Positions 34,394 to 63,200 of a DNA stretch of 64,000 nt are shown in pieces; position 1 is the first letter of the stretch, and each line of letters begins with the position of its first letter. Below the pieces are notes generated by a model. The model ran no database searches, was not told the origin of the DNA, and saw only the letters and a list, made by a program, of their open reading frames with translations. Source of the stretch: a bacterium (GTDB lineage Bacteria; UBA8248); NCBI GenBank assembly GCA_965204535.1, contig CBDBEV010000001.1, positions 1,472,001 to 1,536,000 of the forward strand. Reading direction: 5' to 3'. The translations under genes were made by a program, and so were the position numbers.

Positions 34394-34394
34394 A

Positions 34395-36335: not shown

Positions 36336-36501
36336 TTTCTCCTCCCGTTCAAGTTTTGATGAGCAAAAGTGTTTCGGGTGATTCCGGCCCGCGATGCGCC
36401 GGGCAGAGGCCGGGGAGAGAGACCTGAGGGAGCGGGTACGGGGCCGGGAGAGAGACGGCCGCGCCCGCAACAATCGACTCACGACCTGGGAGGAGCCATC
36501 C

Positions 36502-36849
36502 ATGAAAAACCGAAGACCATCCGCTTTGGCCCATTGTCTGGTCCTCTCCGGACCCGCAATCGCTTTTCTCTTCACCCTCTGCGTCCTCGCGTCCGGGAGA
36601 GGAGCGAGCCTGCTGTTCGCCGTCTGGTTCATCGCCGTGATCTGGAGTTTTCTCACGGCGCTTGCGGGCGCCCTGTGGTGGGCGTATCGCGGCGACCGGT
36701 CCGCCTTCACCGGCTACACGCTTCCTGAAAAAGACATCGATCGCTTCGAGTGGGCTTCCCGCACGGGGCGTTACGCCTGGCGCCGTGATTACGAGGAGGG
36801 GGGGCTTTACGATGACGATGGTCCCTTCGGTCACGGCCCCATCACCTGA
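36502..36849 (+). CDS. Small membrane protein, candidate entry-exclusion factor
   Basis: GGAGGAG RBS, two TM segments, convergent with and overlapping the traG 3' end. Confidence 0.6.
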   Translation: MKNRRPSALAHCLVLSGPAIAFLFTLCVLASGRGASLLFAVWFIAVIWSFLTALAGALWWAYRGDRSAFTGYTLPEKDIDRFEWASRTGRYAWRRDYEEGGLYDDDGPFGHGPIT

Positions 36850-39752
36850 TCGCCAGAAAAACCGCTCCCGCTTTCCTTCTTCCTCTCAGAGGTGGACTCG
36901 AGTTTCTTTCCCGCTTCTTCCTGCGACACGTTGCGCGCCGTGCCGTAGAGTTTCCCGCCCATCCATTCGCCCACGACGGGCAGGTCCCTGACGACATGCT
37001 CACCGAGGGGTTTTTCGGTCTCCTCTGCCACCTTGGGACGCCCCTCCTTGATGGATTCCCCCGCCACGCCCGCGCGGGCCGTACGTCCTGCCTCCCTGAT
37101 GTCCAGTTCGGTCTCTATCTCCGCGCGCCCGCGCGCGGCCCGCCTGCCTGCTCCGCCCGGCCGGGGCGCGCCTGCGCCGCTTGCCTTTTCGCGCACCGAT
37201 GTCGACCAGTCATTCCACGCCGCGTCCGTCCCACCCGCTTCGCGCAATCCTTCCCTCGCATGATCGAATTCTGCTCGACCCGGCGCCGGCTCCACCCCTC
37301 CGCCCGCCGGAAAACGCTCCGCGATGAAGGCGGCGGCATGGGCGCGCAGCACTTCCGCGTCTTCCGTCGTCTGAGGCGATGCCAGGCGCATCGCGCCCGC
37401 GGCGCCTATCTCGCGCCCGTCCGCGCCCACCCGCGTCGTGAGCCACGTGAAGAAGGGCTGTCCGAGTTCGCTCTCTATCGATCGCGCGTTTGCGCGCACC
37501 TCGGCCGCCTGCGTGCTCCAGTTTTCCGCCTCGCGCCTGCTCACCGCCTCCTGCTCGCTGAAGCGCCGCATGCGCGTGAGATTGGCGCCCATACTCTCCT
37601 CCAGGCTTTTCATCTCGCTCTCGCCGGTTGCGCTCGTGTAGCGCCTCGAAGCGTCCGCCACGCGCGACCAGAGGTCGAGCAGGCCGCTCTGGCCCGCGTA
37701 GTCCGTCATCCGGTTCCAGGCCTCGCGCGAGAACGTCTGTCCGCGCCAACTCGCGGATCCGTCGGCGCCTATCCTGACGATGAAGTCGAAGCCGCCTCCC
37801 ACCCTGGCCTCGCTCGTGAGACTTGCCGCCTGCTCCTTCGTGATGCCGCCGGCCTGGGATAGTTTTTCGATATGGGATTCGAGGCGCTGCGCGCCCGCGT
37901 TCTCGCTCTCGGCGACGCCCCGCGCGTGGGTGACGCCGCTTCTCACGTCATGAGAGAACCGCTCGACCATGGCGGCCGAATCGGTCGCGGCGGCCGTTCT
38001 GGCTGTGGCCGCCTCGGCCGAGAAGTGGCGGGCCTGCTCGATTGCGGCGCCCGCACGGACCTCGTGGCTCTGGGCCAGGGATTCAGACAGCCTGACGCCC
38101 GCCGCAGGCACACGGCTCGTCGCGGAGCCGGCGTCCATGACGGCGGCGCCCTCTGCCGTCACGGTGTAGGCGGCGCCGCCGGGAGCGAAGCCGGTGTACC
38201 TCCCTGTGTCCACCTGCGCGGAGGTCCTGACCTGGTGACCTTCAATCGAGGCGAAGCGGTGCGTGTCCGCGCTCGTGTTACCGAGCGAGATGTTGCCCGT
38301 CGTACCCTCCTGCGCGGCGGACGAGGCGGCCTCCTGTCCGACCGAAAGCACCGAAGTGGCGAGCGAGGTCGCGCGGCCCACCCCGTAAGCGAGAGCCGCC
38401 GCGAGGAAGGGCACCGACATCGAGAGGTAGCCCGACATCACGGCCACGTCGGCCGCCACGGCCCTGATACCCGCCTGCGCCACGAGCGAAACGCCTATGT
38501 CGCCTCCCGGCATGAGAGCGGCCGCGCCCATGCGCTGCGCCGCCTCGCCCATGGCAACCCGGTGGAGGATTGCGTAGAGCGGACCCCAGCTTTGCAGCCA
38601 CACCAGGCCCGAGAAGTATGAACGGAATATCGACCCGCCCGCAGGGGTGAGCATCAACAGGACCGCCAGCGGAAACGCCCCCACGTAGAGGCACTCGAAG
38701 ACGATCCGCAGCATCGGCACCCAGGTCTCCGCCTGTCTCCCGATCGCCCGGTAGGCCGATACGGTCTGGGCTTGGGCGCGGGCCTCGGTGTAGGATCTGA
38801 GCGCCGCGGCGTTTCCCGTTTCCGTATTCCACTGCTCGCCCGCGTCGTGCACGGCGTTCAGCACCATCTGCTGGCGCAGCACCTCGGCGGCTGAGCGCGA
38901 CGCCCCGATCAGGAAATCGTGCGCCGCCGGAAGCGCCGCCATGAGTTCGGCCCGCGCGAGCGCCTCGCTCGCGGCCCCGGGGAAGAGCCTCATCCCGAAT
39001 ACGCCGGTCGCCCTCGTGACCTCCGCCGCCCAGAGGGCGTCGAGGCGCGAGGCGGCCGTAGCGCAGGTCACGATCTCCCGGTCCAGCGTCGTGGCGCCCG
39101 TGCCCGAGGCCGCGCCCCGGCTCACGTATTCCACCATGCGCGCGGGCGAGGCGCCCGCAGACGGCGAGCCCGGGGCGGTGACGAGCGCCCAGAGGTCCGT
39201 GCTCTCGCGCAGGTCATCCGCCGATATGTGGCCGAGCAGCAGGGCGTGGAACACGCATTGTCTCGCGTAGGCCCTCAGGTTCCGGGCGAAGACGGCGTCG
39301 GTCACCTCCATCCGGGTCGTTGCGGCCGCGAGCCTGGCGCCGAAGATGAGCCCGTGTCGGCGGTAGGCGAGGTCGGCCGGAAGGGAGAAGGCCTGTTCGG
39401 TCAGGCGCGTGAGCCCGTCTCCCACCCGGCTCGTGAGCGAGGCGAACAGCGCAAGGCCCAGCGGCACGTTCGCAACGACCGCGGGCGCCAGGGCCGGGTC
39501 CAGCCTGTCCACCACGCGCACCGTCGCCCTGGGAACCACCAGCGCGCCCCAGACGCAGACGAAGAGCAGCAGCCACCTGGCGTTGTCCTTCCATGACCCG
39601 CCGAAAGCGGTGCGGAAGAGCGCCCAGGCGAGTCCCGAGACCCCCGCGATCCGGGCGAGCGTGACGAAGGCGCCGCCTCCCGTGATGGCGGCGACGGCGT
39701 TCAGGAGGTCGACCAGGTAGGTTCCGCCTCCCAGGGTGAAGATTTCATACAT
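36831..39752 (-). CDS. traG: F-type mating-pair stabilisation protein TraG
   Basis: MYEIFTLGGG..L..LLNAVAA, VANVPLGLA, WLQSWGPLYAIL. Confidence 0.92.
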   Translation of the reverse strand: MYEIFTLGGGTYLVDLLNAVAAITGGGAFVTLARIAGVSGLAWALFRTAFGGSWKDNARWLLLFVCVWGALVVPRATVRVVDRLDPALAPAVVANVPLGLALFASLTSRVGDGLTRLTEQAFSLPADLAYRRHGLIFGARLAAATTRMEVTDAVFARNLRAYARQCVFHALLLGHISADDLRESTDLWALVTAPGSPSAGASPARMVEYVSRGAASGTGATTLDREIVTCATAASRLDALWAAEVTRATGVFGMRLFPGAASEALARAELMAALPAAHDFLIGASRSAAEVLRQQMVLNAVHDAGEQWNTETGNAAALRSYTEARAQAQTVSAYRAIGRQAETWVPMLRIVFECLYVGAFPLAVLLMLTPAGGSIFRSYFSGLVWLQSWGPLYAILHRVAMGEAAQRMGAAALMPGGDIGVSLVAQAGIRAVAADVAVMSGYLSMSVPFLAAALAYGVGRATSLATSVLSVGQEAASSAAQEGTTGNISLGNTSADTHRFASIEGHQVRTSAQVDTGRYTGFAPGGAAYTVTAEGAAVMDAGSATSRVPAAGVRLSESLAQSHEVRAGAAIEQARHFSAEAATARTAAATDSAAMVERFSHDVRSGVTHARGVAESENAGAQRLESHIEKLSQAGGITKEQAASLTSEARVGGGFDFIVRIGADGSASWRGQTFSREAWNRMTDYAGQSGLLDLWSRVADASRRYTSATGESEMKSLEESMGANLTRMRRFSEQEAVSRREAENWSTQAAEVRANARSIESELGQPFFTWLTTRVGADGREIGAAGAMRLASPQTTEDAEVLRAHAAAFIAERFPAGGGVEPAPGRAEFDHAREGLREAGGTDAAWNDWSTSVREKASGAGAPRPGGAGRRAARGRAEIETELDIREAGRTARAGVAGESIKEGRPKVAEETEKPLGEHVVRDLPVVGEWMGGKLYGTARNVSQEEAGKKLESTSERKKESGSGFSGDQVMGP

Positions 39753-39771
39753 GGGTTGTCTCTCTCCGTCG

Positions 39772-41184
39772 CTATCTCGAGGCCCCGGCGCCGCGCGTGA
39801 AGGCGAGCGCGGCTCTGAGATCCGCCGAGAGCGCACCGCTAAGTTCGGTCTCGATGAGGCGTAGCTTCTCGACCACGGCCAGGGCGGTGTTGAACCGCTT
39901 GAGACCCTCGTTCCGGTGGCGCGCGAGGGCGGCGCGGTTCCTGCGCAGTCCCTCGCGCCAGCGCGTGAGACGCTCGCCGTCCGCGATGTCCATCGAGCCC
40001 GCGCGCTCCTCGATCGCGCGGTGAAGGTCCGATATCCATACCTGGAGCACGTCGAGCGCCACGGCTTCGGCCAGCGCGTCCACCTCCTGCTCCACCACGG
40101 CGCCGCGGTAGGCGGCGGCCGCGTTCACGAGCCGGTAGACCGGCAGCGTCGTGAGGTTCACGAGTCCCAGCGCGTCGGCGGGTGGCGCCGTGTCCGTCCG
40201 CACCGCATCGACCAGGCGCCGGAGCAGTTCCGCGACCCGGTTCCGGAAACCCCGCGCCGCGGGCACCGTGAGGCGACCGAGTGTGGGGTTGAGACACTCG
40301 ACGGGAGTGTCGCAGCGGTAGACGGGCAGGTTGCCGCCGCCTTCCATCAGGATTTCGGTCACCCTTCTGTCCAGCGCCAGGGGTTCGAGCACGCGCACGC
40401 GGGGACCGGACGTGTCCGAATCCGTAACCGGCGCCGTCACGATGACGGAGCCCGCGACCGACATGGCGAATTCCCCTAAATCGCGGTCCGAAGCCAGGAA
40501 GCTCGAGGCCCTTACCGCGCGCCAGGCGTAGTTCACGTTGACGGGCGCCTGTTCCCTGAGCGGCCCCGATGCCGCGGCCAGGGTCGAATTGCGTTTCCCG
40601 TCCGCGCCGCAACCGTGGCGCGCGGCGGCGTAGTCCGAAAAAATCCCCTGCCTTGTTCCAATCGCGGCGCATATCGCGGCGCTCGCCCGGTCGTTCTTGG
40701 ACCAGACCGCGCCGACGAGCGCCTGGGCCGTCTCGCAGGAGTTCAGGTTCTGGTTGTTCACCCACTGCGCCAGGGCGCGGAGTTTCGACATGGTCTCGGC
40801 GATCACGGGCGAGATGGTCTCGAGCGCGAGTTCGAAGGCAAAGCCCGCCGCGTTCTGCGCCACGGCGCGGGCGAAGGCGATCATCTGGTCCGAATCGATG
40901 AAGGAAAACGCGCCCGCGAACGCGTCGATGCCCCCGCAGCCCGCGCGGTATGAGGGAAGACTCACCGTCGCGATCGACTCGGAGCGCACGGGCGCTCTCA
41001 AATAAAGGTTCCCGAGCGTCCAGTGGCCGGACGCCTGGCCGTCGAATGCGGTGGGTCCGGTCGTGTTCACCGCGGCGCCCCGCCAGAAGTTCTCCATCTC
41101 CGACAGGACGTCCGCGCGGGCGGGGGCAGTAAATAAGAACGCGGCGCCCAGGACGAACAGCATGAAAATCCGTCTAGTAGTCAC
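39772..41184 (-). CDS. traH: TraH pilus assembly protein
   Basis: PSYRAGCGGIDAFAGAFSFI, NSCETAQALV. Confidence 0.93.
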   Translation of the reverse strand: MTTRRIFMLFVLGAAFLFTAPARADVLSEMENFWRGAAVNTTGPTAFDGQASGHWTLGNLYLRAPVRSESIATVSLPSYRAGCGGIDAFAGAFSFIDSDQMIAFARAVAQNAAGFAFELALETISPVIAETMSKLRALAQWVNNQNLNSCETAQALVGAVWSKNDRASAAICAAIGTRQGIFSDYAAARHGCGADGKRNSTLAAASGPLREQAPVNVNYAWRAVRASSFLASDRDLGEFAMSVAGSVIVTAPVTDSDTSGPRVRVLEPLALDRRVTEILMEGGGNLPVYRCDTPVECLNPTLGRLTVPAARGFRNRVAELLRRLVDAVRTDTAPPADALGLVNLTTLPVYRLVNAAAAYRGAVVEQEVDALAEAVALDVLQVWISDLHRAIEERAGSMDIADGERLTRWREGLRRNRAALARHRNEGLKRFNTALAVVEKLRLIETELSGALSADLRAALAFTRGAGASR

Positions 41185-41968
41185 TTCCGACCTCCCTTGC
41201 GGTCAGGGCGAAGATGCGCTCCGCCAACTGGTCCTCGGCGACGACGCCGAACGATACCGGGATCGCTCGCCCCGTCTTCGTGTCGTAGAGGACGACGGCG
41301 GGCAGTACCGGGACTTCAATGCCGAGACGCGCGGCGCGGCCGCTATCTGCGACCGCTTCGGGCCAGCCCTCGAGCGCACCCCCGGTCATCGAGACCGCGA
41401 GCATCTCGATCCCGTGACGCAGCGCGAAGGCGCGAAGTAGCGGCCCGAAGACGCGGCATCCCGGACATTTCTCAGAACCCAGGTAGATGAGGCCGTAGCG
41501 CTCGCCGAGCCCTTGCAGGACGCCATCGCGCTCCGCCCTTCGCTCTTCCGTCCAGAGCCTCTTGGCCAGCGCGCCCACCGGGCGCCTCAGCGTGTAGTCG
41601 AGGCCCGGGTTCGCCCAGACCGCGCGCCGGAAGGCGTCCGAGAACGCGGCGGCGGATTGTAAGGCCTCCTGCTGGAGGCGCAGGTAGGCCGTGACGTTCT
41701 TTGGTGTGGGTTCGAGGACAGCCCGCGCGCGGGCCTCCTCTAGCGCCCGGCGTGTCGCGAGGATCCGCTCTTTGGCGCTCGTGGCCGGCGGCGCCTTCGT
41801 CGCCCGCGCTTCCTCTTCCGTTTCCTCCTCGCTCCGGTCGCAATAGAAGTGCCAGCCGAGCGGCGACGCCTCCGCGCCGCACCAGCGGCGCCACTCCCGC
41901 GCCTCTGCGGGCAAGGCCGTAATCAGCACGAAAAGATAGGCGAAGGCCAATGCGCAGATTTTCGTCAT
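41174..41968 (-). CDS. traF: TraF thioredoxin-like protein
   Basis: LGWHFYC, A..EPT.KNV..Y, CPGC. Confidence 0.9.
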   Translation of the reverse strand: MTKICALAFAYLFVLITALPAEAREWRRWCGAEASPLGWHFYCDRSEEETEEEARATKAPPATSAKERILATRRALEEARARAVLEPTPKNVTAYLRLQQEALQSAAAFSDAFRRAVWANPGLDYTLRRPVGALAKRLWTEERRAERDGVLQGLGERYGLIYLGSEKCPGCRVFGPLLRAFALRHGIEMLAVSMTGGALEGWPEAVADSGRAARLGIEVPVLPAVVLYDTKTGRAIPVSFGVVAEDQLAERIFALTAREVGSDY

Positions 41969-41977
41969 GCTCGTTCC

Positions 41978-43054
41978 TCACTTGTTCTTCGTATAGAAAT
42001 CGCGTATGCGCCCTCTCATCAAGGAGCCGGTATCCCCCGAGTCGGGGAGCGTGACGGAAGGCTCGCTCGCGCCGTCCATGAGGTTTTCCGTGAACTCCGA
42101 CAAATCCACGGCCTCGAAGTCGATCCGCTCCATCTCCTCGACGGTGAAGCCGCGGCAGCTGCCCCAGCCGATGCCGAGTTGCGACCGCGCCGCCTCCTGC
42201 AGGATGCGGCCGAGCTTGGAGCCGAAGACGCACCAGACCCGCTCCCTGCGCACGCAGACCCCCAAGATGCGCTTCGCGCACCGCGTGCCCAGGTAATGCG
42301 TGTTCCCGGCGTGGCGCTCCTGCGCCAGGAGGCGCTCCGCCTCGGTGCAATCGCCGAGGCCGATGAGAAGGCCCGAGTCCTTGCAGCAGTTCGCCAGTCC
42401 GCCCCAGCGGATCCGGCACGATCTGCGCTCGCCCCTGAAAAACCTCAAGCTCCCGCGGTCGAATTCCTCGCCGCCGAGTTCCAGCACCATGTTGAGTTTC
42501 GCCGCCGCGTCGACGAAGCCGATACCCGCCTGAGAGGACCTGGCTTCGCAGTCCGCTCCCACGCACCAGGCGACAGAGCCGCAAGTTCCGCCCGATTCGG
42601 CCTGATCGAGGCCCGCGCCGCAGTTCGAGACGGACCCCGACGCCAGACCCGAGGCGCCGAAGCGCGAAGCGCCGGGATCGCCCTGCACCTCATCACCGCG
42701 CACGGATACCGGGTCATCGGTTTCGACCGACGCTTCAGGACGCGCGGTCGTCCCCTCGATCACGGAGCGCCCGGCGCGTCCACCGGGGTCATCGGGATCG
42801 GCGAGCGCACGGGCAGCGGCGTTTTCCAGATCGGCCGCATTCAGGTCCCGCTCGGGCCGGTCCGTTCCCGCGTAGCCGGGCACCCTGGACGTCGATGTCG
42901 GGTCTCGCGCAACGGTGGCGGCCGCCGCCCGGCCCACGTCCCCCATCGCGCGGGCGGCCGCCTTGGGGTCTTCGGCGCGCGAGTCGCCCGCTGACAGGTG
43001 CGCCAGGATGAGCAGGAACAGAATGATGCCCTTCATTTTGTCGTTGCGCCTCAC
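41978..43054 (-). CDS. traN: TraN, unusually short
   Basis: C-terminal NCCK, YLGTRC, CVFGSKLGRILQE, CRGFT..E..IDF; position between trbC and traF. Confidence 0.88.
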   Translation of the reverse strand: MRRNDKMKGIILFLLILAHLSAGDSRAEDPKAAARAMGDVGRAAAATVARDPTSTSRVPGYAGTDRPERDLNAADLENAAARALADPDDPGGRAGRSVIEGTTARPEASVETDDPVSVRGDEVQGDPGASRFGASGLASGSVSNCGAGLDQAESGGTCGSVAWCVGADCEARSSQAGIGFVDAAAKLNMVLELGGEEFDRGSLRFFRGERRSCRIRWGGLANCCKDSGLLIGLGDCTEAERLLAQERHAGNTHYLGTRCAKRILGVCVRRERVWCVFGSKLGRILQEAARSQLGIGWGSCRGFTVEEMERIDFEAVDLSEFTENLMDGASEPSVTLPDSGDTGSLMRGRIRDFYTKNK

Positions 43055-43770
43055 CGATAATCTCCCCTGAGTTTCCCGAGGTGACGCCGCGCCGTCTCCC
43101 GGCCCGGCCCGCCTTCTGTCGCGATAATCGAAAGCGCAGCGTCGAGGCCGATGTTCCCCCCGATAACGTCATGGGGCGGCGCGGGGTCCGCCGAACAACC
43201 GCGGGTCGTACAAAGCGGGACGCCGCCCGGGACGACGGCGACGGTGGGGACCGCCTTCACCTCGAACAGCCGGAAAAGGCGCGGGTCTATGGCGGCGCCG
43301 GCATTTGCAGGGAGATGCGCCCCGACGCGTTTCACCGTGGCCCTGAGTCCTCCCCGCGCGACGCCGCGCAGAACCAGCGGCGCGCCGATCCTGGCCGCCT
43401 CCACGCTCCACTCCCGCCAGGCCGCTGCGGGAACCGACAGGCTCATGAAGACGATGACTTCCGAGCCTCGCGCAGGCTTTGACAAATTATCCGCGAGGCT
43501 CCCGGCGCGGCTTTCCGCCGGGAGGGGGGCGAGGGTCTCAGGGGCGTTTTTGGCGGCGCGCTCCAGAGCGCGTTCGAGCACGGAACGCGACCAGGAGCCG
43601 AGGTCGGCGGGTGGAGATTTTTTTCCCTGCCTGAGTATCTGATCCACGATCTTTTTCGCCGCCTCCGAGGGTTTTTCCTGGGAGTAAGCCGGAGCGTTCC
43701 AAGCCGCAAACAGGAGGGAGCAGGCGAGCAAGGCCATGATTGTGAACGTATGTATCTGATGCCGGCCCAT
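43051..43770 (-). CDS. trbC: F-type TrbC
   Basis: VFMSLSVP, LVLRG, IDPRLFRLF.V.AVP, GNIGL. Confidence 0.9.
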   Translation of the reverse strand: MGRHQIHTFTIMALLACSLLFAAWNAPAYSQEKPSEAAKKIVDQILRQGKKSPPADLGSWSRSVLERALERAAKNAPETLAPLPAESRAGSLADNLSKPARGSEVIVFMSLSVPAAAWREWSVEAARIGAPLVLRGVARGGLRATVKRVGAHLPANAGAAIDPRLFRLFEVKAVPTVAVVPGGVPLCTTRGCSADPAPPHDVIGGNIGLDAALSIIATEGGPGRETARRHLGKLRGDYR

Positions 43771-43780
43771 ATCAAAATCC

Positions 43781-44782
43781 TTAGAGTAGGCAGCAGTTGC
43801 GCTTGCGCCAGAGCAGGTACCCGAAATTCTCCCCCGCGACCGGGAGTTCGCGGAGCGTCTCCCAGAGAACCGTGGAGCGGCCCGTCGGGTTGCAGCCGGT
43901 CAGCGCCGAGGTGGCGGGCACCGGCTGGGTCATCTGCCAGCGGTACTGTGATTTCTTCATGATGGGCATGGGATAGCGGCCGCACAGCGCGGCCGAGCCC
44001 GACGTGCCCCAGGCGAGCAGGGTGCGGTGCAGGCGGAAGACGAGACGCTGTGCGGCAAGCAGCGATGCCTGCACGCCGCCCACGTGGGCGCCCACGTTGC
44101 CGGTCAGGGGGTACATCGCGCCCTGACAGCCCGCGCACCAGTAGAGCGCGTCGAGCGGCAGGCCCGCAGAGGCCGCCGCGCAGTCCGCGGCGCACGCCGC
44201 CTGGGCGGGCAGGTCCGCGAAGAGCGCGGCTTCGGGACTCAGCAGGAACGAGAGCTCATCATCCCGCCAGGCCGGGTCGAGCTCCGATACCCAGGCGATG
44301 TCGAGGCCGCCGCCTTCCAGACAGCCCAGGTCCAGCAGCGCCCCGATCCACGAGAGCAGCGGGTAGACGTAGTAGTGGACGTGCCAGGTGGAGCCTTGCG
44401 CGCCGTCCCCGCCCGATGCGCCCGTCCGACCGCGTCCGGCGGGCAAACCCCCGTCGATGGTCAATCCACCGAGATTCGGGAAACACCAGGGCGCGCGGCT
44501 CGCGTCGATCAGGCGCGCGGGTTCCCAGACGCCCAGCGAGAGGCCGATCCGGGGGATGGGACTCCCGCAGTAACAGATCGGGGACCCGGGATTGGGCGTG
44601 TCCGGCGCGCCGGCGGCCGCGCCTATCCGGATCGGTCCTATCGATATCGGAAAAAGGCACTCCCAGCACACGTCCGTCACGGGGTTCACGAAACGGCCCG
44701 TGCACGACTGCGCAGAAGCGCCCTGCGCTGACAGAACGGCGACGAGAAATATGATGAGTCCTGAAATTTTCAGGGACTTCAT
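43781..44782 (-). CDS. traU: TraU
   Basis: CTGRFVNPVTDVCWECLFP, WEPARL, SELDP.W, WRKRNCC. Confidence 0.95.
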   Translation of the reverse strand: MKSLKISGLIIFLVAVLSAQGASAQSCTGRFVNPVTDVCWECLFPISIGPIRIGAAAGAPDTPNPGSPICYCGSPIPRIGLSLGVWEPARLIDASRAPWCFPNLGGLTIDGGLPAGRGRTGASGGDGAQGSTWHVHYYVYPLLSWIGALLDLGCLEGGGLDIAWVSELDPAWRDDELSFLLSPEAALFADLPAQAACAADCAAASAGLPLDALYWCAGCQGAMYPLTGNVGAHVGGVQASLLAAQRLVFRLHRTLLAWGTSGSAALCGRYPMPIMKKSQYRWQMTQPVPATSALTGCNPTGRSTVLWETLRELPVAGENFGYLLWRKRNCCLL

Positions 44783-45444
44783 GGACGCTCTCCTGCGCTT
44801 TCGGGTTCGTCTTCGAGCGGCACTTCCGTGATCCGCAGGAAGACTCCTTCCGCCGCGACCAACGAAGGCGTGGCGACGACGCCCAGGCGCCTCGCGAGCC
44901 TGCCGCCCTGGTCGAAGAAGAACGCCCGCCCGTGGGCGCGGGCGAGGTCCAGCGGACGGCCAGCGAGCAGTACGATCACGGAGGGTTTTTCGCGGGCAAT
45001 CGCCCAGTCGACCTCGACCGGGCGCGTCCCGTCGATGAAGAGGAGATCGCGGGTTAAGGGGTGTTTTTCAAGGGGATTGATCCGGGTCCCCCGGGCCGCG
45101 ACCAGCGTCCCCTCGGCCGTCCTGATGTCCTGTCCGACCGTGATGGTGGGGTCGAACCGCCTGATCCTGAGAAAGCGCGCAGGCTTGACGCCCGCGACGC
45201 GGGGAGGCGCCTCGACCCGCTCCCGGGCGCGTTCCACGGCTTCACGCCTCATGCGGTCCGCCTCGCCCGTGTCCTCCATTTCCTCGAGCCTGGCCTCGAT
45301 CTCGCGCAAAAGGTCGGGCTCCTCGATGGGCCATACCGCTCCGCGGACGCCTAAGTCCTTCGCCGCAGCGGCGCCGGCGGCGAGGACGAAGACACATGCC
45401 ATCACGGTCCTCATGAGACGTGAATGAAGCGAGTGTCGCCTCAT
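44779..45444 (-). CDS. traW: TraW
   Basis: DLGVRGAVWPIEEPDLL, FDPTI, INPL, FFDQGG. Confidence 0.93.
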   Translation of the reverse strand: MRRHSLHSRLMRTVMACVFVLAAGAAAAKDLGVRGAVWPIEEPDLLREIEARLEEMEDTGEADRMRREAVERARERVEAPPRVAGVKPARFLRIRRFDPTITVGQDIRTAEGTLVAARGTRINPLEKHPLTRDLLFIDGTRPVEVDWAIAREKPSVIVLLAGRPLDLARAHGRAFFFDQGGRLARRLGVVATPSLVAAEGVFLRITEVPLEDEPESAGERP

Positions 45445-45995
45445 GGCCGCACCTCCCCGGGTTTCGCGAGAGGACCTTCGAGGCCCAGCCAGGGGAGGTC
45501 AGGCAGCGCCACGGCGCGGCCACGGATTCGCTCGCGCGGCACGAGGCCGATCTCGCGGTACCTGCTGTCGTGACTGTCCTTGTGCTCCGCATGGACGTAG
45601 TAGTGGCCCGGCGGGATGACTCCCGGTTCGATGGCGGCAAGCGGACGGCCGTCAAGCGCGCGCCGCTTTGCGACTCCTGTTAAAACGCCGTTCACGCTGA
45701 CGCGCCGTTCATCATCCACCTCCACGCGCTCGCCCGGCAGGCCGCTGACGCGTTTCAGATACGGAATCGGCGAATCGGCGGCTTCGGGCGGGTCAAAGAG
45801 GACGAGGTCGCCGCGCTGTGGCGCTCCGATCAGCGGCAGCGCGAAGTATCCCCATGCGCCGTCGGAGGTGCTGGCGTTCACGTGGACGCGCGATGCCGCC
45901 GCGAGCCACAGGCCCGAGAGAACGGCCATGCAGACCAGGAGCCTGAAGCCCCTGGGGTTCGTTCGGCCCTTTGCGGCCTCATCGGTCATCAGCAT
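45441..45995 (-). CDS. trhF: S26 conjugative signal peptidase (TrhF type)
   Basis: NASTS, YLKRVSGLPGE, DSHDSRY..IG. Confidence 0.88.
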   Translation of the reverse strand: MLMTDEAAKGRTNPRGFRLLVCMAVLSGLWLAAASRVHVNASTSDGAWGYFALPLIGAPQRGDLVLFDPPEAADSPIPYLKRVSGLPGERVEVDDERRVSVNGVLTGVAKRRALDGRPLAAIEPGVIPPGHYYVHAEHKDSHDSRYREIGLVPRERIRGRAVALPDLPWLGLEGPLAKPGEVRP

Positions 45996-46365
45996 TTTTC
46001 TTCTCCCTGTTCGATGAAGTCCTGCTAGCGAGTTCCGTCATCACGGCCTCGACCTCCTCCGTCAGGTCCTCTGCGCCCGCGGCGACGGCGCCCGCCGTGA
46101 GCAGGACGACGCCCCGGCGCGCGGCGGTTCGCGCGAGCGCCTCCTCCAGCCTTCTCGCCCAGTCGCGGGCGGCGGCCAGGGTTTTCCTGGAATCTCCACC
46201 ATCGCGCAGCGACTTCGTGACGTAGGCCGCCGTGAGGCTCGATAGCCGCACGCTCGCGATATGATGGGGTTTTCCGGGAGCAAACCTCACTGTCCCGGCC
46301 GAGACGGCGGCGGCGACGCCCGCCGCGAGCAGGAGAGTGGCCGCGAACCCGGAAACCCCGTTCAT
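45979..46365 (-). CDS. trbI: F-type TrbI-like protein
   Basis: N-terminal TM, VVLL...AV..GAEDLT; position. Confidence 0.75.
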   Translation of the reverse strand: MNGVSGFAATLLLAAGVAAAVSAGTVRFAPGKPHHIASVRLSSLTAAYVTKSLRDGGDSRKTLAAARDWARRLEEALARTAARRGVVLLTAGAVAAGAEDLTEEVEAVMTELASRTSSNREKKNADDR

Positions 46366-46610
46366 GGCCGCTCCCCCGCGGCGCAAAGCGCATCATCCAT
46401 CTCGACCCACTCCGCGGCGTCATGACGCCTGAACCACGCCGTTCCCTCCTCGTCATGGAACATGTAGTGGAACCGGCCCGCGTAGAGGCGCTCACCTGCG
46501 TCGGCCGAGAGCACGCCCGAAGCGATAGCGGCGCGGAACACGGCGTCGGCGTCCTCGTACACCCGAATGAAGCGCTCAGGATCCGAGTGCTGCCTGCGAT
46601 CAGGCCGCAT
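46362..46610 (-). CDS. Small hypothetical protein
   Basis: GGGAGG RBS, ATGA coupling to trbI; F.AAI..G.LS...YAG..YM pattern. Confidence 0.6.
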   Translation of the reverse strand: MRPDRRQHSDPERFIRVYEDADAVFRAAIASGVLSADAGERLYAGRFHYMFHDEEGTAWFRRHDAAEWVEMDDALCAAGERP

Positions 46611-47328: not shown

Positions 47329-47374
47329 GTGATCTCCTTTTCGTGTTCATACAGATAATCTTGCGATGGATGAC

Positions 47375-52877: not shown

Positions 52878-52887
52878 GTGCGTTTCC

Positions 52888-53181
52888 TCATCCGGTGAAG
52901 CGGCGCAGGTGGCTCGGCGGCGCGGCCTTGAGACCAAGCGCAAAGCCGGGCAGGAACCAGTAAAGGGCGCACAGCGCCGTATCGGCCCCGCCGCCCCTCT
53001 TCGCGCGGCGAAGCAGCGCCCAGCCGCCGAGTCCCGCGACGAGTCCCGTCACGAAGGCGTTCGCCGCAAGACCCAGAAGCACGGGCGCCAGGAGCGCCGC
53101 CGCCTCATCGAGCGTCCAGAACAGCCACCTCTCGGGATCGTCCAGACGCGCGGGAATCGCGTGTTTCGCCTGATCGTTCAT
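52888..53181 (-). CDS. traL: TraL
   Basis: IPARLDDPER.LFWTLDE, LYWFLP. Confidence 0.9.
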   Translation of the reverse strand: MNDQAKHAIPARLDDPERWLFWTLDEAAALLAPVLLGLAANAFVTGLVAGLGGWALLRRAKRGGGADTALCALYWFLPGFALGLKAAPPSHLRRFTG

Positions 53182-53190
53182 CTCCCCTCC

Positions 53191-53487
53191 TCACACGATC
53201 GCCGTGCCCACGAGGCCGGTCACGACGCCCGTGCCCGCGCCCGCCGCAATGCCCACCCCCACTGCGCCCGCGATCTGCGCCGCGTTGAAGCGAAGCACCG
53301 AACCCACGAGCGCCGCGCCCACCGCGAGCGCGGCAGCCAGCTGTCCGCCCGTGCCCGAGACGATGTCCGTCACCGTGCCGAGCGGACCCGCAAACGTCGT
53401 GTCCGTCGTCGCGAAGACAGCCTCCACTTCACACAACGTCCAGACGAACGCCGCGAGCAGATGCTTTCCCCTGAAATACGTTCTCAT
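53191..53487 (-). CDS. traA: Conjugative pilin
   Basis: Leader plus two Gly/Ala-rich hydrophobic helices directly upstream of traL. Confidence 0.75.
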   Translation of the reverse strand: MRTYFRGKHLLAAFVWTLCEVEAVFATTDTTFAGPLGTVTDIVSGTGGQLAAALAVGAALVGSVLRFNAAQIAGAVGVGIAAGAGTGVVTGLVGTAIV

Positions 53488-54224
53488 CACGCAACCCTCC
53501 TTCCGTCGTCCGAGGTGGAGGTCCGCCTCCGCGCAGCGGCCCAGGCCTCGAGGTCCGCGAGCAGGTAGCGCACCCGCGAACCGAAACGATGAAACGCAGG
53601 CCCCGCCCCGCTCACGCGGTATCGGTCCAGCGTCCTCGTCGAGAGGCCCAGCCACTCCGCCGCCTCCCGCGTGCTCAGGTAATGCTTGCCGTTCTCGTTC
53701 ATGTACATCTCTCCTTCTGTCTCGGTCCCGCCACTCGGGACCCCTGTAGTCTGCGGGCAGGACGCCGCCCGCAGGAAAGGTTTCATACCGGCCGTATCCG
53801 CCACCCGGCCGCGGATAACCTGCAGCTCCTCTTCGCTCACGTGCGAAGCCATCCAGGTGCGCACTCGCTCAATCGTCGCAAGCCGCGGCGAATACCCGCG
53901 GCGCAGTTTCCACACGAAGGAAGGACTGCCCGTGGCCTCCTCGCCAAGCACCCGCGGCTTGGTCCCCGTCAAGGCCATAAACGCCTCGACCTCGCTCCTG
54001 AAGGCCGGTCCCAGCGGCGGAGCCCCCATGAAGGCGAGCACCCGGTCCGCCGTCTTCATCCCCACGGAGCGTCCCCGGCGCAATTCGTCAACGAAATCCG
54101 GGTCTCCGAGCGCGGCCCTCCCGAGATATCTCGCACTCACGCCGTGGCGCACGCACCACGCGGCAACGCAGCGGTTCAATTTGTCGACCAGGGGCATCTC
54201 TGTGTGGTGAGCGAGTGTTTTCAT
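53487..54224 (-). CDS. Two tandem Cro-like HTH units fused to an AlpA/Xis-type (HTH_17) domain; internal start at 53702
   Basis: Repeated G...LG..A.G.P.FV..LRRG.S....T..RV..(F/W)M; then YLSTREAAEWLGLS.RTL..YR..G.GP.F.RFG.RVRY. Confidence 0.8.
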   Translation of the reverse strand: MKTLAHHTEMPLVDKLNRCVAAWCVRHGVSARYLGRAALGDPDFVDELRRGRSVGMKTADRVLAFMGAPPLGPAFRSEVEAFMALTGTKPRVLGEEATGSPSFVWKLRRGYSPRLATIERVRTWMASHVSEEELQVIRGRVADTAGMKPFLRAASCPQTTGVPSGGTETEGEMYMNENGKHYLSTREAAEWLGLSTRTLDRYRVSGAGPAFHRFGSRVRYLLADLEAWAAARRRTSTSDDGRRVA

Positions 54225-54870
54225 GTGATAAATATATATGAATATAAATATTATTATCAATAACTAAATATATCTAGTTTCCTGCGATTTTTTGCCACCT
54301 CCAGTCTCATCTGCGAACGGCTGCGCAGGGGTATGGCAAAAAAAAGTGATTTTCTTCCACAGCGACGGCGTGTACGGGAGCGAGGCGAAGCCCCGCGACT
54401 CCGTACGGGAGAGGAGCTGTCGCTTGAACCCGGAAAGACAGGCATCCCGATAAACGAATATAATACGAAAATAAACGAACCGCAACACAGGTCCATGCCG
54501 GGAAACCTGATTGCCTGAAATTCACGGGCACGCCGCGCGGCATCACGGGAAAAACGGATTCCGCCGATGACGGCCAGAAGGGTGGAATCGGGGTGAAGAC
54601 TTGACCTGGGGGCCACAGGTCATCGAAAGCTGCGCACCCTCCGGCCGGGATTCCACCAACCCGCACCCTCTCCAAACCGCCTAAAACCGGCCCGTAGCCT
54701 CCGTTGCGTGGTTCAATCGACGCTGAACGCAGGCGCCCCAGGAATCGCTCGTATCTCCTGCAACTCGCCTCTCACCGCCGGGAGGCCGAGCCGGGCGGGG
54801 CGTGGGCGAGGCCGGGAGACTCGAGAGCGTTCCCGGCACGTTCCCATCCCATCCACAGGAGGAAATTCGT

Positions 54871-57105
54871 ATGGCTCAGGCTGAACCGCTTATCCGTTCC
54901 ATCCCGCTCAACCGGCTGGAGCTCGCGCCGGAGAACGTCCGCAAGACCCCGCCCGACCCCGCCTTTTTCGCGGAGCTCAAGGCCTCCATCACGGCCCACG
55001 GTCTGATGAAGAACCTGGTCGTCAGGACAGAGGACCCCGGCGGTGACCCCGGATCGGGTCCGGAGCAGGCTCCGGCCGAGCACTATGCCGTGGTCGCCGG
55101 CGGACGCCGCCTCGCCGCCATGAAGGCCCTGGCGGAAGAAGGCGTCCTCGACGCGGACCACCCCGTGCCCTGCCGGGTAATCGGCGCGTCGGAGAACGCG
55201 GAAGAGTTCTCCCTCGCCGAGAACGTGGTGCGCGTCGCCATGCACCCCGCGGACCAGGTCGTCGCGTTCGCGAAGATCGCGGAGGCAGGGGTATCCGTAT
55301 CCGCCATCGCGGCGCGCTTCGGCGTCACGGAGCGCCTGGTCGAGCAGCGCCTGAGTCTCGGGGGCGCCGCGCCCGAACTGCTCGACGCCTACCGGGCCGA
55401 AGAGATGGACCTGGACACCCTCAAGGCCTTCACGGTCACGACCGACCACGCCCGCCAGATGGCGGTCTGGGAACAGGTGAAGGAATACGGCTACGGGCCC
55501 AGCGGCTGGCAGGTGAGGCGCATACTGACCGAGGAGAACGTCCCCGCCGTAACGGCCGTGGCGCGCTTCGTGGGCGAAGAAGCCTACGAGGCGGCAGGGG
55601 GTACGCTCACGCGGGACCTGTTCGCCGAAGAGGACGCCCGGGGAATATGGTTCGACGACCCCGTCCTCCTGAACGAGCTCGCGACGGAAAAACTCCGCGC
55701 GGCGGCGGAGGAACTGAAGAAGCGCTGGAAGTGGGCCGAGGCGGTGGTCGAGGCCGACTGGAGCGCGATCTCGGGCTTCGGGCGAATCCACCCCGAACCG
55801 GGCGCTCCCACCGATGAGGAGAAGGCCGAGCGGGAGAGGTTGTGGGCCCGCCACGATGAACTCGTGAACACGGACGAGGACGACTGGACCGACGAACTCG
55901 GCCAGGAGGCCGAAGCGCTCGAGGCGCGCCTGCGCGCGATCGAGGAGGCCGTGAACGCGCGGGCCGCCTATCGCGAGGAGGATTTCAAGGTGGCGGGCTG
56001 CATCGCCACCGTCGGCCACGACGGCGCGCTCAAGGTCGTCGAGGGCCTCGTGAGGCCCGAGGACATGCCCGAGCGCACGGAGGCGGGCGAGGCGAACGGC
56101 GCCGGTCCGGGCCGCGTGGACGCGCCGCTCGCGGCGCCCCCCGACCCGCGCGCGAAGGTCCGCAAGGAGACGGGGATCGGGATCGGACTCGCCGACGATT
56201 TGCGCGCCGTCCGCACGACGCTCGTCAAGGCGCACCTGTCGGGGGACTTCGAGGCGGCCTTCGACCTGACGCTCTTCCAGTTCGCCTGCGCCGCGTTCGC
56301 CAATGACCACATGGCGGGCGCCCTCGACATCGCCTTCCGGGAGACCGCCGACCGGCCGCCCGCGCGGACGGGCGACGAGGACTTCGCCGCCTGGAGTCTG
56401 GGCGAGGCCATGCTGGCGGAACGTCCGGACCTCTCCCTGGCCTGGATGGAGAACGAGGACGAAGACGCCGCCTTCGCGGCGATGCGGGCGCTGCCCCAGG
56501 CGGAGAAGCAGGCCATCTACGCGGCGGCGGTGGCGCGCTCGCTCAAGGGACAGCTCGCCTTCGAGCCGGACGCCCGGCCCGTGCTAGAAGCCACGGTCGC
56601 CAGGCTCGATATCGACTTCGCGAAGCACGTGCGTCCTTCCGCCGCGATGTTCTGGTCGCGCATCACGAAGGACCGCATCCTCGCCATAGCGCGCGCGACG
56701 CTGGGGCCCGTCTGGGCCTCCGCCCGCGCGAAGTTCAAGAAGGCCGACCTGGCCCTGGCGATGGAAGAAGCCTTCGCCGCCGACCCGCCCGAGAATCTGA
56801 CCCCGAGGGTACGGGCCGTCCTGGCCTGGACGCCGCCGGGGTTCGCGCCCTTTGATGCGGGCCTGGTGGGAGAGGCCGTGGAGGAAGACCCGCCGGCCGA
56901 AGAACCCGGACCGGAAGCCGTCGATGAAGAGGCCTCCGGTGCCGGCGGCGGCGACGCCCCCGCGGGGGGGGAACTCGCCCGGGCGGTCGACGCGATGAAC
57001 GCGGTGCCCACCGCGGACGGGGGTCCGAGGGTAATCGTGCACGGGATCGATCTCGCAAACGGCCAGGGCGGCGAGGAGAACGACGTCCCCGAATTCCTGC
57101 GCTGA
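54871..57105 (+). CDS. ParB/Srx-domain protein, long conjugative-element type
   Basis: NVRKT, LKASI..HGL, VAGGRRL, SLAEN..R..MHPADQ, HTH; AGGAGG RBS. Confidence 0.9.
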   Translation: MAQAEPLIRSIPLNRLELAPENVRKTPPDPAFFAELKASITAHGLMKNLVVRTEDPGGDPGSGPEQAPAEHYAVVAGGRRLAAMKALAEEGVLDADHPVPCRVIGASENAEEFSLAENVVRVAMHPADQVVAFAKIAEAGVSVSAIAARFGVTERLVEQRLSLGGAAPELLDAYRAEEMDLDTLKAFTVTTDHARQMAVWEQVKEYGYGPSGWQVRRILTEENVPAVTAVARFVGEEAYEAAGGTLTRDLFAEEDARGIWFDDPVLLNELATEKLRAAAEELKKRWKWAEAVVEADWSAISGFGRIHPEPGAPTDEEKAERERLWARHDELVNTDEDDWTDELGQEAEALEARLRAIEEAVNARAAYREEDFKVAGCIATVGHDGALKVVEGLVRPEDMPERTEAGEANGAGPGRVDAPLAAPPDPRAKVRKETGIGIGLADDLRAVRTTLVKAHLSGDFEAAFDLTLFQFACAAFANDHMAGALDIAFRETADRPPARTGDEDFAAWSLGEAMLAERPDLSLAWMENEDEDAAFAAMRALPQAEKQAIYAAAVARSLKGQLAFEPDARPVLEATVARLDIDFAKHVRPSAAMFWSRITKDRILAIARATLGPVWASARAKFKKADLALAMEEAFAADPPENLTPRVRAVLAWTPPGFAPFDAGLVGEAVEEDPPAEEPGPEAVDEEASGAGGGDAPAGGELARAVDAMNAVPTADGGPRVIVHGIDLANGQGGEENDVPEFLR

Positions 57106-57127
57106 ACCGCATCCCCGTTCAATCACG

Positions 57128-57162
57128 GCGCCCCGCGGCATTTGCTGCGGGGCGCTTTTTTT
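57128..57162 (+). terminator. Intrinsic terminator
   Basis: GCGCCCCGCGGCA-TT-TGCTGCGGGGCGC followed by T7. Confidence 0.8.
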
Positions 57163-57190
57163 CGTTTTCACGTCTAGAGGAGTCCACGAC

Positions 57191-59379: not shown

Positions 59380-59437
59380 CTGTACCGGAATCCCTTCGTT
59401 CTTTCCGTTTCCCTCTTTCACGTAAAGGAGAACGCCG

Positions 59438-59812: not shown

Positions 59813-59847
59813 CCAATCCGTTTCCCGTACACATTCTGGAGAAAGCC

Positions 59848-60165: not shown

Positions 60166-60282
60166 CCCTGGTTCACACCGGGTAGAGGCCGAGAGAGGCC
60201 CGGCCGGGGCGTTCCGGGAGGTCCCGGGGGAGCTATCCCCCGGACGGCCTCCCTCATTCCCACGACATCCGAGGAGAGAGCC

Positions 60283-63200
60283 ATGCCGCAAGCCCTGACG
60301 GCGGAGGTGCGTCCGCGCACCGTCCGCTCCGCACATCCCGCCGAAGCCGATGCGCTCTTTGAAGCCGCCCGGACCCTGCTGCCCGTCCTGGCGGCCGGCC
60401 GTCCGCTGGACGCGAATGCGCTGCGCGAGGCCATGACGAGCGCTTTCGGCGTGAACGACGCCGGGGGCGCCTGGGTCTGGAAGGACGCCTACGAGGCGGC
60501 GGAAGCCGCCGTCGTGCTCTTTCTGAAGCGCTACGGGCGGGCCATGCGCCGCCGGGCGGGGGCCGGACCCGATGGTCCCGCCGCCATGCTGGCCATGCTG
60601 CAAAAACTGTCCGCCCTGGAACCCTCCCACACGAAACGCTCGGAAGACCAGGTGCGCCTGCAGCAGTTCTCGACCCCGCTCGGCCTGGCCTACGCCGCGG
60701 TGCGGGCGGCGGCGCTCCGGTCAGGCGACGTCGTTCTCGAACCCTCCGCCGGTACCGGGATGCTCGCCGTGATGGCGCAGTGCGCGCTCGGTAACGAGGA
60801 CGCGCTTCACCTGAACGAGATCGCGAACGTCCGCGCCGGCCTCCTCGCTCATCTCTTCCCGAATGCCGGCATCACCCGCCACGACGCCGAGGCCATCGCC
60901 GACCGCCTCCCGGGAGTCCGGCCGGACGTCGTCCTCATGAACCCGCCGTTCTCGGCCACGCCGGGAGTCGCCAAGGCCCGGCGCGACACAGACCTGCGCC
61001 ACCTGCACTCGGCGTTTTGCGCGCTGGCCCCTGGCGGTCGCCTGGTCGCCGTCACGTCGGCGGGCTGCTTCCCGGGCGATTCGGCCTGGAAGGCGGCCTT
61101 CACCTCCCTGGAGACGCCCGCGCGCGTCGTCTTCACGATGGGCGTCGACGGGCGCGCCTACGCGAGGCGCGGGACCACCTACGACACCCGGCTCACCGTG
61201 ATCGAGAAGAGCGACGCGCCCGGCATCGCCGTCGACCCTGGAAGCCGCGCGGCGGACGCCTCCGAACTGCTCGACGCGGTCACGGCGAGTGTTCCGCCGC
61301 GCTTGTCTGCTCCCGCCGCCGGTACGCCCGCACCGGACGCCCCGCTCCGCGATCTTTTCGGCGAGACTCCGGCGTCCGGGGCGAAAACGCGCAAGAACAG
61401 GGCGAGAAAGCCGGTTTCCAAACCGGCGCACGACCGGGGAGCGGTCACCGAGCTCGCATACGAGGCGGCCCCGCCGTGCGGCGAGGACGAGACGGCAGGC
61501 CCCTACGCGCCCTGGAAGCCGGGCGTCGTCCATCTCCCGGGCGCCGTGGCGCATCCCACGCCGCTCGTCCAGTCGGCCGCCATGGCCGCCGTCGCGCATC
61601 CAAGGCCCGCGCACCGCCCGTTGCTGCCCGAGCGCGTCGTCACCGAGGGTTTGCTGTCCGATGCCCAGCTCGAGAGCGTCGTCCTGGCCGGCGAGGCGCA
61701 CGAGCGCCACCTCTCCGCACGCTACCGGATCGGATCGGGCTGGGAGACGGTCCGCCGCTTCGATGAGGAAGGCGGGTCCACGGCCGAGGAAGCCGTGACG
61801 GAAGACGGCGAAGTCCTATCGGCGCCGGCCCGATTCCGCCGGGGCTGGATGCTGGGCGACGGCACCGGGTGCGGCAAGGGCCGGCAGGTCGCCGCCGTCA
61901 TACTCGACAACATGCTCCGGGGACGGAAGCGCGCTCTCTGGCTCTCGGCCTCCGCCAACCTGCTCGAAGACGCGCGCCGTGACTGGTGCGCCCTCGGGGG
62001 AAGCGCTGAGGACGTGATCCCGCTGGGGAACTTCCGCCAGGGGGCGGACATCCCGCACGAGAGCGGTATCCTGTTCGCGACCTACGCCACGCTCCGGGCG
62101 CCGGCCCGGGAGGGCAAGGCCTCGCGGCTCGAACAGGTGGTCGCCTGGCTCGCGGGCGGTCTCGATGAGGAAGACCTCCACCGCTTCGGCGGCGTGATCG
62201 TGTTCGACGAGTCCCACGCCATGGCGAACGCGGCGGGTTCCAGGGGCTCGCGCGGCGCCGTCAAGCCCTCCGCCCAGGGACGGGCGGGGCTCAGGCTCCA
62301 GAACGCGCTTCCTGGCGCGCGCGTGCTCTACGTCTCGGCCACGGGCGCCACCACCGTGACCGGCCTCGCCTACGCGGGACGCCTGGGCCTCTGGGGCGCA
62401 GGAGAGACCCCCTTCGAGAACCGCGAGGAATTCGTAACCGCGATGGAGGCGGGCGGCGTCGCCGCCATGGAGGTGGTGGCCCGCGATCTCAAGGCCCTGG
62501 GACTGTACCAGGCGCGGGCGCTCTCCTATGAGGGGATAGAGGTCGACATCCTCGAACACCCGCTCACGCCCGAGCAGCGCCGCATCTACGACGCCTACGC
62601 CGGCGCCTTCAAGGTGATCCACGCCAATCTCCAGGACGCGCTGGAGGCCACCGGCATCATGCAGGGCGAGGAGACGCTGAACAGGAACGCGAAATCCGCC
62701 GCGCTCTCCGCCTTCGAGGGCGCCAAGCAGCGGTTTTTCGGCCACCTTTTGACCTCGATGAAGTGTCCCTCGCTCATCCGGGCGGTGGAGGCGGACCTGG
62801 ACGCCGGCCGCTCGGCCGTGATCCAGCTCGTCTCCACCGGAGAGGCCCTGATGGAGCGGCGGATCGCGGAGATCCCGGCGTCTGAATGGGACGACTTGTC
62901 CATCGACCTGACGCCCCGGGAATACGTGCTCGACTTCCTCGCCCACGCCTTCCCGGTACAGCTGCAGGAGCCCTTCACCGACGATGAGGGGAACCTCATG
63001 AGCCGGCCCGCCGTCGACGAGGACGGGAACCCCGTACTCTCCCAGGAGGCCCTCGCCAGACGCGAGGCTTTGATCGCGAAGCTGGCGTCGCTGCCGCCCG
63101 TTCCATCCGCTCTGGACCAGATCGTGCACCGCTTCGGCCACGACGCCGTGGCCGAGGTGACGGGCCGCTCCAGGAGAGTGCTCCGGATCGAGGACGCGCA

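Follow-up and report, generated by a model that had tools for sequence, protein, structure and literature searches.

Recurrent hairpin-bearing leader before establishment-type genes of an integrative conjugative element and its relatives

In the UBA8248 bacterium represented by GenBank assembly GCA_965204535.1, a stretch of 64,000 nucleotides (nt) of contig CBDBEV010000001.1 (positions 1,472,001 to 1,536,000, forward strand; hereafter the window) holds, from about 27 kb onward, an integrative conjugative element (ICE) of the MOBF/F type. An earlier note on this DNA had reported one hairpin leader of about 100 nt, repeated before three plus-strand genes of the element. The three copies are real, and they belong to a larger, widespread and uncatalogued family of leaders of establishment genes for which the inferred transferred strand (T-strand) is the template. 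As to function, a shared 5'-leader regulon acting on mRNA is tentatively favoured, at a probability of roughly 45%.

The repeats stand exactly where they had been reported (CCGGGCAGAGGCCG at 36399, CCGGGAGGCCG at 54778 and CCGGGTAGAGGCCG at 60178), and the start codons given in Table 1 follow 103, 93 and 105 nt downstream, as claimed. AGGAG precedes all three starts, GGGGCGT and TTCCCA..CATCC are confined to copies 2 and 3, and the three stem-loops are predicted as the note wrote them. The repeat stands as described, with corrections: its core is not the 14-mer but GAG-N3-GAG together with GGGCG, and copy 1 is the most degenerate. A scan for both boxes over 48 kb of the ICE found copies 2-5 and failed on copy 1 because its box B is degenerate. 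Copies 4 and 5 lie just past the window end, giving a total of five in the ICE, all in one co-oriented gene run. Copy 1 is scored at E 1.2e-5 by model R1, in whose training set it was included, and copy 2 was recovered by a held-out parB profile at E 0.035. The observation that no copy precedes the minus-strand tra genes was borne out, since the sole minus-strand match of the two-box scan is the ribosome-binding site (RBS) of traL (53192, score 13.0), and R1 has no match within the tra region of a second ICE (L092).

Table 1. Leader copies and other features of the element (positions in the window or equivalent to it; L001 coordinates are those of the locus so numbered)
Feature	Position	Strand	Remarks
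Leader copy 1, before eex-like gene	36397..36504	+	ATG 36502; RBS 36488-36495; box A 36406-36414; degenerate box B GGGAG 36428-36432; hairpin 36432-36468, loop 36447-36455
Leader copy 2, before parB-like gene	54773..54873	+	ATG 54871; RBS 54857-54862; box A 54782-54790; box B 54804-54808; hairpin 54811-54837, GAGA loop 54823-54826
Leader copy 3, before methylase/strawberry-notch helicase	60176..60285	+	ATG 60283; RBS 60271-60276; box A 60185-60193; box B 60207-60211; hairpin 60216-60253, loop 60232-60235
Leader copy 4, before conserved 43-aa acidic open reading frame (ORF)	67070 (L001:9070-9173)	+	Two-box scan
Leader copy 5, before ssb	67279 (L001:9279-9383)	+	Box A overlaps last codons of the 43-aa ORF
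Frpo-like 200-nt hairpin	68205-68410 (L001:10205-10410)		Folds on inferred T-strand; z -8.0
Predicted oriT	~71844-72557 (L001:13844-13866 and 14243-14557)	-	Beside NikA-like RHH gene, far from relaxase gene
Tandem tyrosine integrases, left end of element	27218..29811	+	
MOBF relaxase-helicase (TrwC domain) and coupling protein TraD	31556..36335	-	No motif copy upstream
115-aa hydrophobic protein between traD and traG	36502..36849	+	eex-like by position only
F-type tra operon (traL..traG), with excisionase-like HTH_17 gene and second small gene upstream	36831..54224	-	No motif copy upstream
744-aa ParB-like protein	54871..57105	+	ParB_N; PRTRC ParB-like below cut-off
Methylase/strawberry-notch helicase	60283..64000, continuing to 64716	+	AAA_34 and Helicase_C_4

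Across 114 de-duplicated copies, the order of parts is box A (GAGG(C)NGAG), spacer, box B (GGGCG), hairpin, C/T-rich linker, RBS and ATG. The positions G0, A1 and G2 of box A are each kept in 97% of copies, a C-rich stretch with CGCCG or CACCG at -9 to -5 lies on its 5' side, and composition turns from C-rich to purine-rich exactly at box A. The spacer between the boxes measures 13 nt in 50 of the 114 copies and 12-14 nt in 79, against a flat distribution in shuffles, a preference that is partly circular in that the profile was built on these leaders. The hairpin loop falls near +45, and the ATG mostly 80-105 nt past box A. GAG turns up in box A, again in the hairpin loop and again in the RBS; the loops are 83% purine, with GNRA tetraloops in 10 of 52 and frequent GAGA or GGAGAG. 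The mean GC content of the leaders is 71%.

The significance of the motif derives from its recovery at the level of the family, since the short pattern of the earlier note is by itself not beyond chance (three window matches against a shuffle mean of 1.02, with 10 of 100 shuffles reaching three). The combined pattern GAGGCSGAG-N13-GGGCG, written after the alignment, has two window matches, a number reached by none of 100 shuffles. A held-out profile made from 19 parB leaders of other lineages, with the RBS trimmed, placed 12 leader sites at the top of the host-genome ranking (E 0.012-1.7); the reversed genome gave three matches in that range. The first profile was made from 73 leaders, 26 of 128 having been dropped because the motif was not at its position or the start was uncertain, in addition to near-duplicates. 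At E<0.3 it returned 29 sites in the host genome, among them 11 training leaders or their duplicate and three identical duplicates on two contigs. All 29 are at gene starts, 28 with an RBS and ORF directly behind and the 29th before an eex-like gene with a weak RBS; by genomic setting, 28 precede an element gene or lie no more than 30 kb from landmarks of an element, and the exception stands before a gene for a copy of an element protein. Genome-wide, 15 of 23 strong two-box matches coincide with profile matches and eight do not. Furthermore, the boxes are kept while spacer and stems diverge among proteins that are 55-75% identical. Two regions, G000:C1 at ~183-197 kb and C2 at ~2956-2970 kb, are identical, a possible assembly duplication by which the counts are raised by three sites.

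Related loci (68 kept of 411 relatives) come from metagenome-assembled genomes (MAGs) labelled Alpha- and Gammaproteobacteria, Nitrospinota, Binatia, Thermodesulfobacteriota and others, and the leaders of their parB, helicase and eex-like orthologues have the motif in common. Over 1.67 Mb of loci, 157 profile matches were obtained at E<=1, of which 156 are on the helicase strand and one, on the opposite strand, stands before an inverted parB. Leaders of parB, helicase and eex-like genes account for 85, another 58 precede other ORFs (ssb, toprim, AAA ATPase, DprA-like, radC and small unknowns, the radC copy being in locus L010), and for 13 the script found no start. R1 matches occur in 24 of 31 genomes, with up to 44 per genome, counts in which kin are not independent and to which some genomes also supplied training rows. 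A related leader precedes parB, ardC, helicase and DUF6878 genes on cultured alphaproteobacterial plasmids. In ten stretches of such plasmids (309 kb), the pattern AGAG-N3-GAG-N28-40-GAGAG, written after most of those leaders had been viewed, has 14 matches, which fall on 13 sites and without exception on the gene strand; 12 of these sites lie within 92 nt of a start, and 20 shuffles give 0-3 matches. The stretches of pSymA and pAtC58 examined hold no copy of this pattern. Because R1 scores these leaders only weakly (E 0.096-0.32), the alphaproteobacterial link is drawn from common boxes, gene partners and spacing. Since Ruegeria, Methylorubrum, Mesorhizobium and Asticcacaulis can be cultured and have plasmids with counterparts of the leader, the question of function is directly testable. 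Non-pathogenic carriers include Ruegeria NZ_CP065363, Methylorubrum pCMU01 and Mesorhizobium pML2037. The motif is also a compact tag by which leading-region genes of unknown function, and the direction of transfer, can be recognised.

The direction of transfer was assigned from a nic-like site downstream of DUF2493, TGCGT(CC/GG)GGTGT'G (the apostrophe marking the cut), which lies behind a small, varying inverted repeat. Because this site resembles the nic of F, given as TTTGCGTGGGGTGT'GG in the accessible text of PMC2504302, and because a NikA-like RHH gene adjoins, the minus strand is likely the T-strand, with the relaxase gene entering last. The motif genes would then point towards oriT, with the T-strand as their template and that template strand entering first. 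The earlier description of an element-specific, repeated cis-element before establishment-type genes is supported. The nic-like site is on the strand opposite the motif genes at all 11 DUF2493-linked host sites (14 host matches in all) and in 18 of 19 locus matches; the same was seen in further elements inspected, and one weak match in L123, with no ORF, points the other way. In this ICE the predicted cut is at 71844/71843, and the five copies would lie 4.6, 4.8, 11.7, 17.1 and 35.4 kb from nic. A plus-strand nic-like word at 54322-54337 was rejected as oriT because the site beyond DUF2493 is the better match to F nic and also has the varying inverted repeat and the RHH neighbour.

Promoter signatures are scarce. 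The sigma-70 -10 word TAnnnT is absent from 85 of 92 leaders, and only two of the seven that hold one have it within the first 50 nt. Promoter scans gave nothing inside the leader copies, the nearest plus-strand promoter-like site being ~320 nt upstream of copy 2. No element-borne sigma factor was found in the host, where the four Sigma70_r2 matches all lie away from mapped element genes. Many helicase leaders have box A ~20-30 nt past the upstream stop codon, with no evident terminator. The RNA run X1 held 5% of words, as contigs mostly <95% alike, and the accessible main texts of PMC4992315 and PMC13055273 contain nothing relevant on start sites at these leaders.

The strand on which the hairpin forms was examined through G-T and A-C mismatches at otherwise paired columns. 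In 10 orthologue groups these number 47:24 (p 0.009), pointing to the sense strand, and the sense consensus is the more stable in nine of the ten. Over the region +22..+75, 45 of 60 leaders fold more stably on the sense strand (mean z -1.74 vs -0.84). Alignment-free counts over the whole leader are 51:40 and 57:30, only the latter being significant. The test discriminates, because control windows upstream of DUF2493 in 30 loci behave oppositely (14:49 and 19:33, indicating T-strand folding), although about a third of these windows are in coding sequence and some are near-identical. Folding of whole copies gives z values of -0.85, 0.04 and -2.76 for copies 1-3, so that only copy 3 beats shuffles. 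Box B has a predicted pairing probability of 0.7-0.9 in the RNA fold and is therefore probably within the transcript. A first candidate hairpin that enclosed box A, pairing the upstream CGCC with box B, showed no covariation (z ~-0.3) and was rejected. Each gene family keeps its own stem, and covariation is weak; the proposal that stems differ while pairing is kept holds for independent hairpins per gene family but not in the sense of covariation in a fixed register.

An mRNA leader is favoured because of the sense-strand hairpin, the paired box B, the unpaired GAG alongside the GAG of the RBS, the missing promoter signature and the hosts in several phyla. With no sigma-70 -10 in most leaders, no element sigma factor and hosts across phyla, a host-independent RNA signal fits better than a promoter. 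The motif stands before ParB-like, helicase, primase-like, SSB and other establishment-type genes, 80-105 bases upstream of the start codon, and under this model it would be transcribed whole and would act in the mRNA. A putative trans factor, either an RNA-binding protein or a nuclease, would read the hairpin and the single-stranded GAG boxes and thereby set translation or stability of the establishment genes together, switching them on in either the donor or the recipient. The GGA-reading logic of CsrA and the loading site of lambda nut serve as analogies only.

Several observations weigh against this model, the strongest of them being positional. Two plasmid copies (L072, DUF6878; L093, helicase) start 10-15 nt past a terminator-like hairpin, box A of the ssb leaders overlaps the last codons of the upstream ORF, and copy 1 fills most of the 166-bp divergent gap between traD and the eex-like gene, with no conserved promoter upstream; these positions would favour a DNA site or a start on single-stranded DNA. 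The part that spans boxes A and B lacks structure (z -0.3 to -0.5), and its spacer is tight, like that of DNA sites. In the hairpin region, the alignment-free mismatch counts (31:25 and 37:25) are not significant. No consensus fold or pair emerged across 50 copies, hence R1 is sequence-only, a second Watson-Crick type occurs in only 10 of 155 group-wise pairs, and the six-sequence ORF98 group shows no two-sided change and no excess over shuffles. In addition, leaders of the MAG family leave the RBS at least as accessible as tra starts do (0.39 vs 0.32), so occlusion of the RBS was rejected as a general mechanism. Speaking for the model instead, the stem of three alphaproteobacterial copies runs up to or over the RBS, with the Shine-Dalgarno sequence unpaired at 0.0-0.26.

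Among the alternatives, boxes A and B may form a double-stranded DNA site, an operator or activator site comparable to those of ICEclc BisDC or IncN CUP/ArdK, with the hairpin only stabilising the 5' end of the mRNA. This is a rather unlikely explanation. The boxes are unstructured and conserved, their starts are about two helical turns apart with the partly circular spacer preference given above, and the positions just past terminators, in the traD/eex gap and over the upstream ORF would be accommodated, as would the arrangement of five copies in one co-oriented run and the ParB-like, HTH_17 and RHH proteins that the element encodes. An activated sigma-70 promoter still requires a -10, however, and most copies have none up- or downstream of the boxes. 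The motif is also kept in small integrative elements that lack parB and helicase. No DUF2285/FseA-type domain (PF10074) was found in the host, a weak point because the control was silent too. A doubtful further option is a non-canonical start site on the single-stranded T-strand, at which RNA synthesis opposite unpaired CTC repeats, by host RNA polymerase or by the toprim protein of the element, would need no -35/-10, would be silent in duplex DNA and would yield an mRNA with a 5' hairpin. The establishment-type genes, the T-strand as their template at the nic-like sites counted above and the switch from C-rich to purine-rich exactly at box A agree with such a start, and the missing -10 would keep it off in duplex DNA. 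Nevertheless, all three classes of single-strand promoter described in the accessible text of PMC12672017 are large stem-loops that rebuild -35/-10, which the leader lacks; the same element already has a canonical-looking single-strand promoter, copy 1 would lie ~35 kb from nic, and no precedent was found.

The remaining possibilities are less probable still. It is quite improbable that the leader is a non-functional or weakly selected relic, a GC-rich segment duplicated and spread by recombination whose hairpins arise from G-rich and C-rich composition. Chimeric leaders (described below), weak covariation and low z in two window copies suit a relic, but the boxes persist while spacers and stems diverge, the held-out profile recovers leaders, and all 14 alphaproteobacterial pattern matches fall on the gene strand. 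A priming signal of the ssi type, at which the toprim primase of the element would begin complementary-strand synthesis, has very little in its favour: toprim, helicase and SSB are encoded by the element and CTC repeats lie on the T-strand, but the distance to start codons is fixed, 17 kb of tra genes are devoid of the motif, and the hairpin is biased to the other strand. Least probable, and hardly credible, is a classical Frpo/ssi-type single-strand promoter hairpin on the T-strand. The strand geometry is right, yet neither a long T-strand stem nor a -35/-10 on either arm is present, and the mismatch bias is opposite to that of the control hairpins; T-strand folding of the five copies has z values of -1.7 to 0.3, against -11.9 for the hairpin that this ICE has before DUF4326/DUF2493. 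The leader is not Frpo, and that option of the earlier note is not supported.

A hairpin of the Frpo kind is nevertheless present in the element. It lies between ssb and DUF4326, before DUF4326/DUF2493, has TTGACC..TAAAAT on one arm, and is ~91-95% identical among several elements of the host genome. These elements combine two distinct kinds of leader: hairpins on the T-strand precede DUF2493-type genes, and the sense-strand leader precedes parB, helicase, toprim, ssb and ardC. The expression of newly transferred anti-restriction, SSB, ParB-like and primase/helicase genes has been worked out mainly in enterobacterial and a few Bacillus plasmids. It is an unlikely prospect that the leader represents, next to the Frpo-like hairpins, a second and undescribed class of early-expression signal that co-ordinates establishment genes across phyla, acting either as a promoter-less start on the incoming strand or as a GAG-reading RNA-binding switch.

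Compared with known systems, the leader resembles the repeats of establishment regulons (CUP/ArdK, Reg576, EGeRS, BisDC) and sits at Frpo-type positions, but lacks the defining features of Frpo. Like the Frpo/ssi single-strand promoters, of which classes 1-3 are known from F, ColIb-P9 and pESBL (PMC11541004, PMC12672017), it lies upstream of leading-region genes (ssb, parB-like, methylase), is T-strand-templated and is repeated within one element; unlike them, it has no large T-strand stem or rebuilt -35/-10, its GC content is high and its hairpin favours the mRNA strand. As with CUP/ArdK of IncN (PMC6289460) and Reg576/EGeRS2 of Bacillus plasmids (PMC6294495, PMC8708921), a conserved upstream repeat defines a regulon of establishment genes, but CUP and Reg576 are repressor operators on active promoters, whereas no sigma-70 promoter overlaps the leader and no repressor was identified. 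EGeRS1 of the pLS20 family, whose mechanism is unknown, is likewise a repeated structured region upstream of establishment genes without a strong housekeeping promoter; it differs from the ~100-nt, T-strand-templated leader in being 400-600 bp long and Gram-positive, with the transferred strand as non-template (PMC8708921). The ICEclc BisDC regulon (PMC9286271, PMC12409273) also has an element-specific motif common to several core gene clusters and a ParB-like protein. Its 27-bp motif lies far upstream of the start site and includes traI and integrase promoters (PMC9286271), whereas the leader is not found before tra, traD/traI or int genes and has its hairpin beside the RBS. For HerB, the available text gives no consensus DNA motif for comparison (PMC13370423). 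The radC (RF01754) and STAXI (RF01728) RNA motifs (PMC2864571) are similarly candidate structured leaders of unknown function near mobile-element genes for DNA handling or anti-restriction, but the leader has neither pseudoknots nor UUCG loops, its covariation is weak and it has no Rfam match. At the gathering score, Rfam gave no hit in the window or in five loci and only the unrelated ar15 in six more, L010 being among these 11 loci; scans by E-value gave nothing on the leader copies. No description of the motif was found in topical searches of a library that lacks most subscription papers, and supplements of RNA-motif surveys could list it.

Two chimeric leaders, G000:C2:313805 and G000:C1:831521, join an eex-type 5' context to an ORF98-type 3' part, which suggests, from their sequence arrangement, that recombination between motif copies may have deleted the eex-like gene twice. 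As a by-product, homologous recombination between copies seems to rearrange or remove genes; CUP copies can also recombine. In smaller elements (L090:556-852 and homologues) the motif is followed by the gene of a 98-aa basic protein that belongs to no known family and has nine full or near-full host copies; this protein was rejected as the trans factor, being absent from this ICE and present in two of 78 loci, with Atlas uninformative.

Regarding the remaining genes of the element, the 115-aa protein behind copy 1 has no family in Pfam, NCBIfam or Atlas, so its earlier label of eex lacks family support. The plus-strand genes also include HATPase and DUF2958, and past the window there follow toprim, ssb, DUF4326, a YAcAr/DUF2493 gene, an insertion sequence and the NikA-like RHH gene. 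The host genome contains 12 DUF2493 copies and at least eight near-full relaxase copies. About a dozen related integrative elements in it have ssb-DUF2493-oriT in common, several have a relaxase with no tra operon nearby, and the insertion sequence recurs in both orientations just downstream of DUF2493. Beside the relaxase end, after a low-GC cargo ORF, 31130-31510 is a degenerate fragment of the second integrase gene. A block of 30-35 bp at 54312-54345 recurs ahead of traI or traD in other host elements and is possibly a transfer-gene promoter or regulator site. Divergent sigma-70-like sites lie at 54225-54260, before the HTH/excisionase-like/tra unit, and at 54435-54464, upstream of parB. 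Upstream of the fourth copy, L001:8600-8800 forms a GC-rich branched structure with a T-strand z of only -1.4. Terminator-like hairpins stand directly before the RBS of HATPase (57127-57165) and toprim (L001:7245-7278), so close that a promoter would not fit in between; these two genes seem to depend on read-through or processing, and control by read-through is conceivable.

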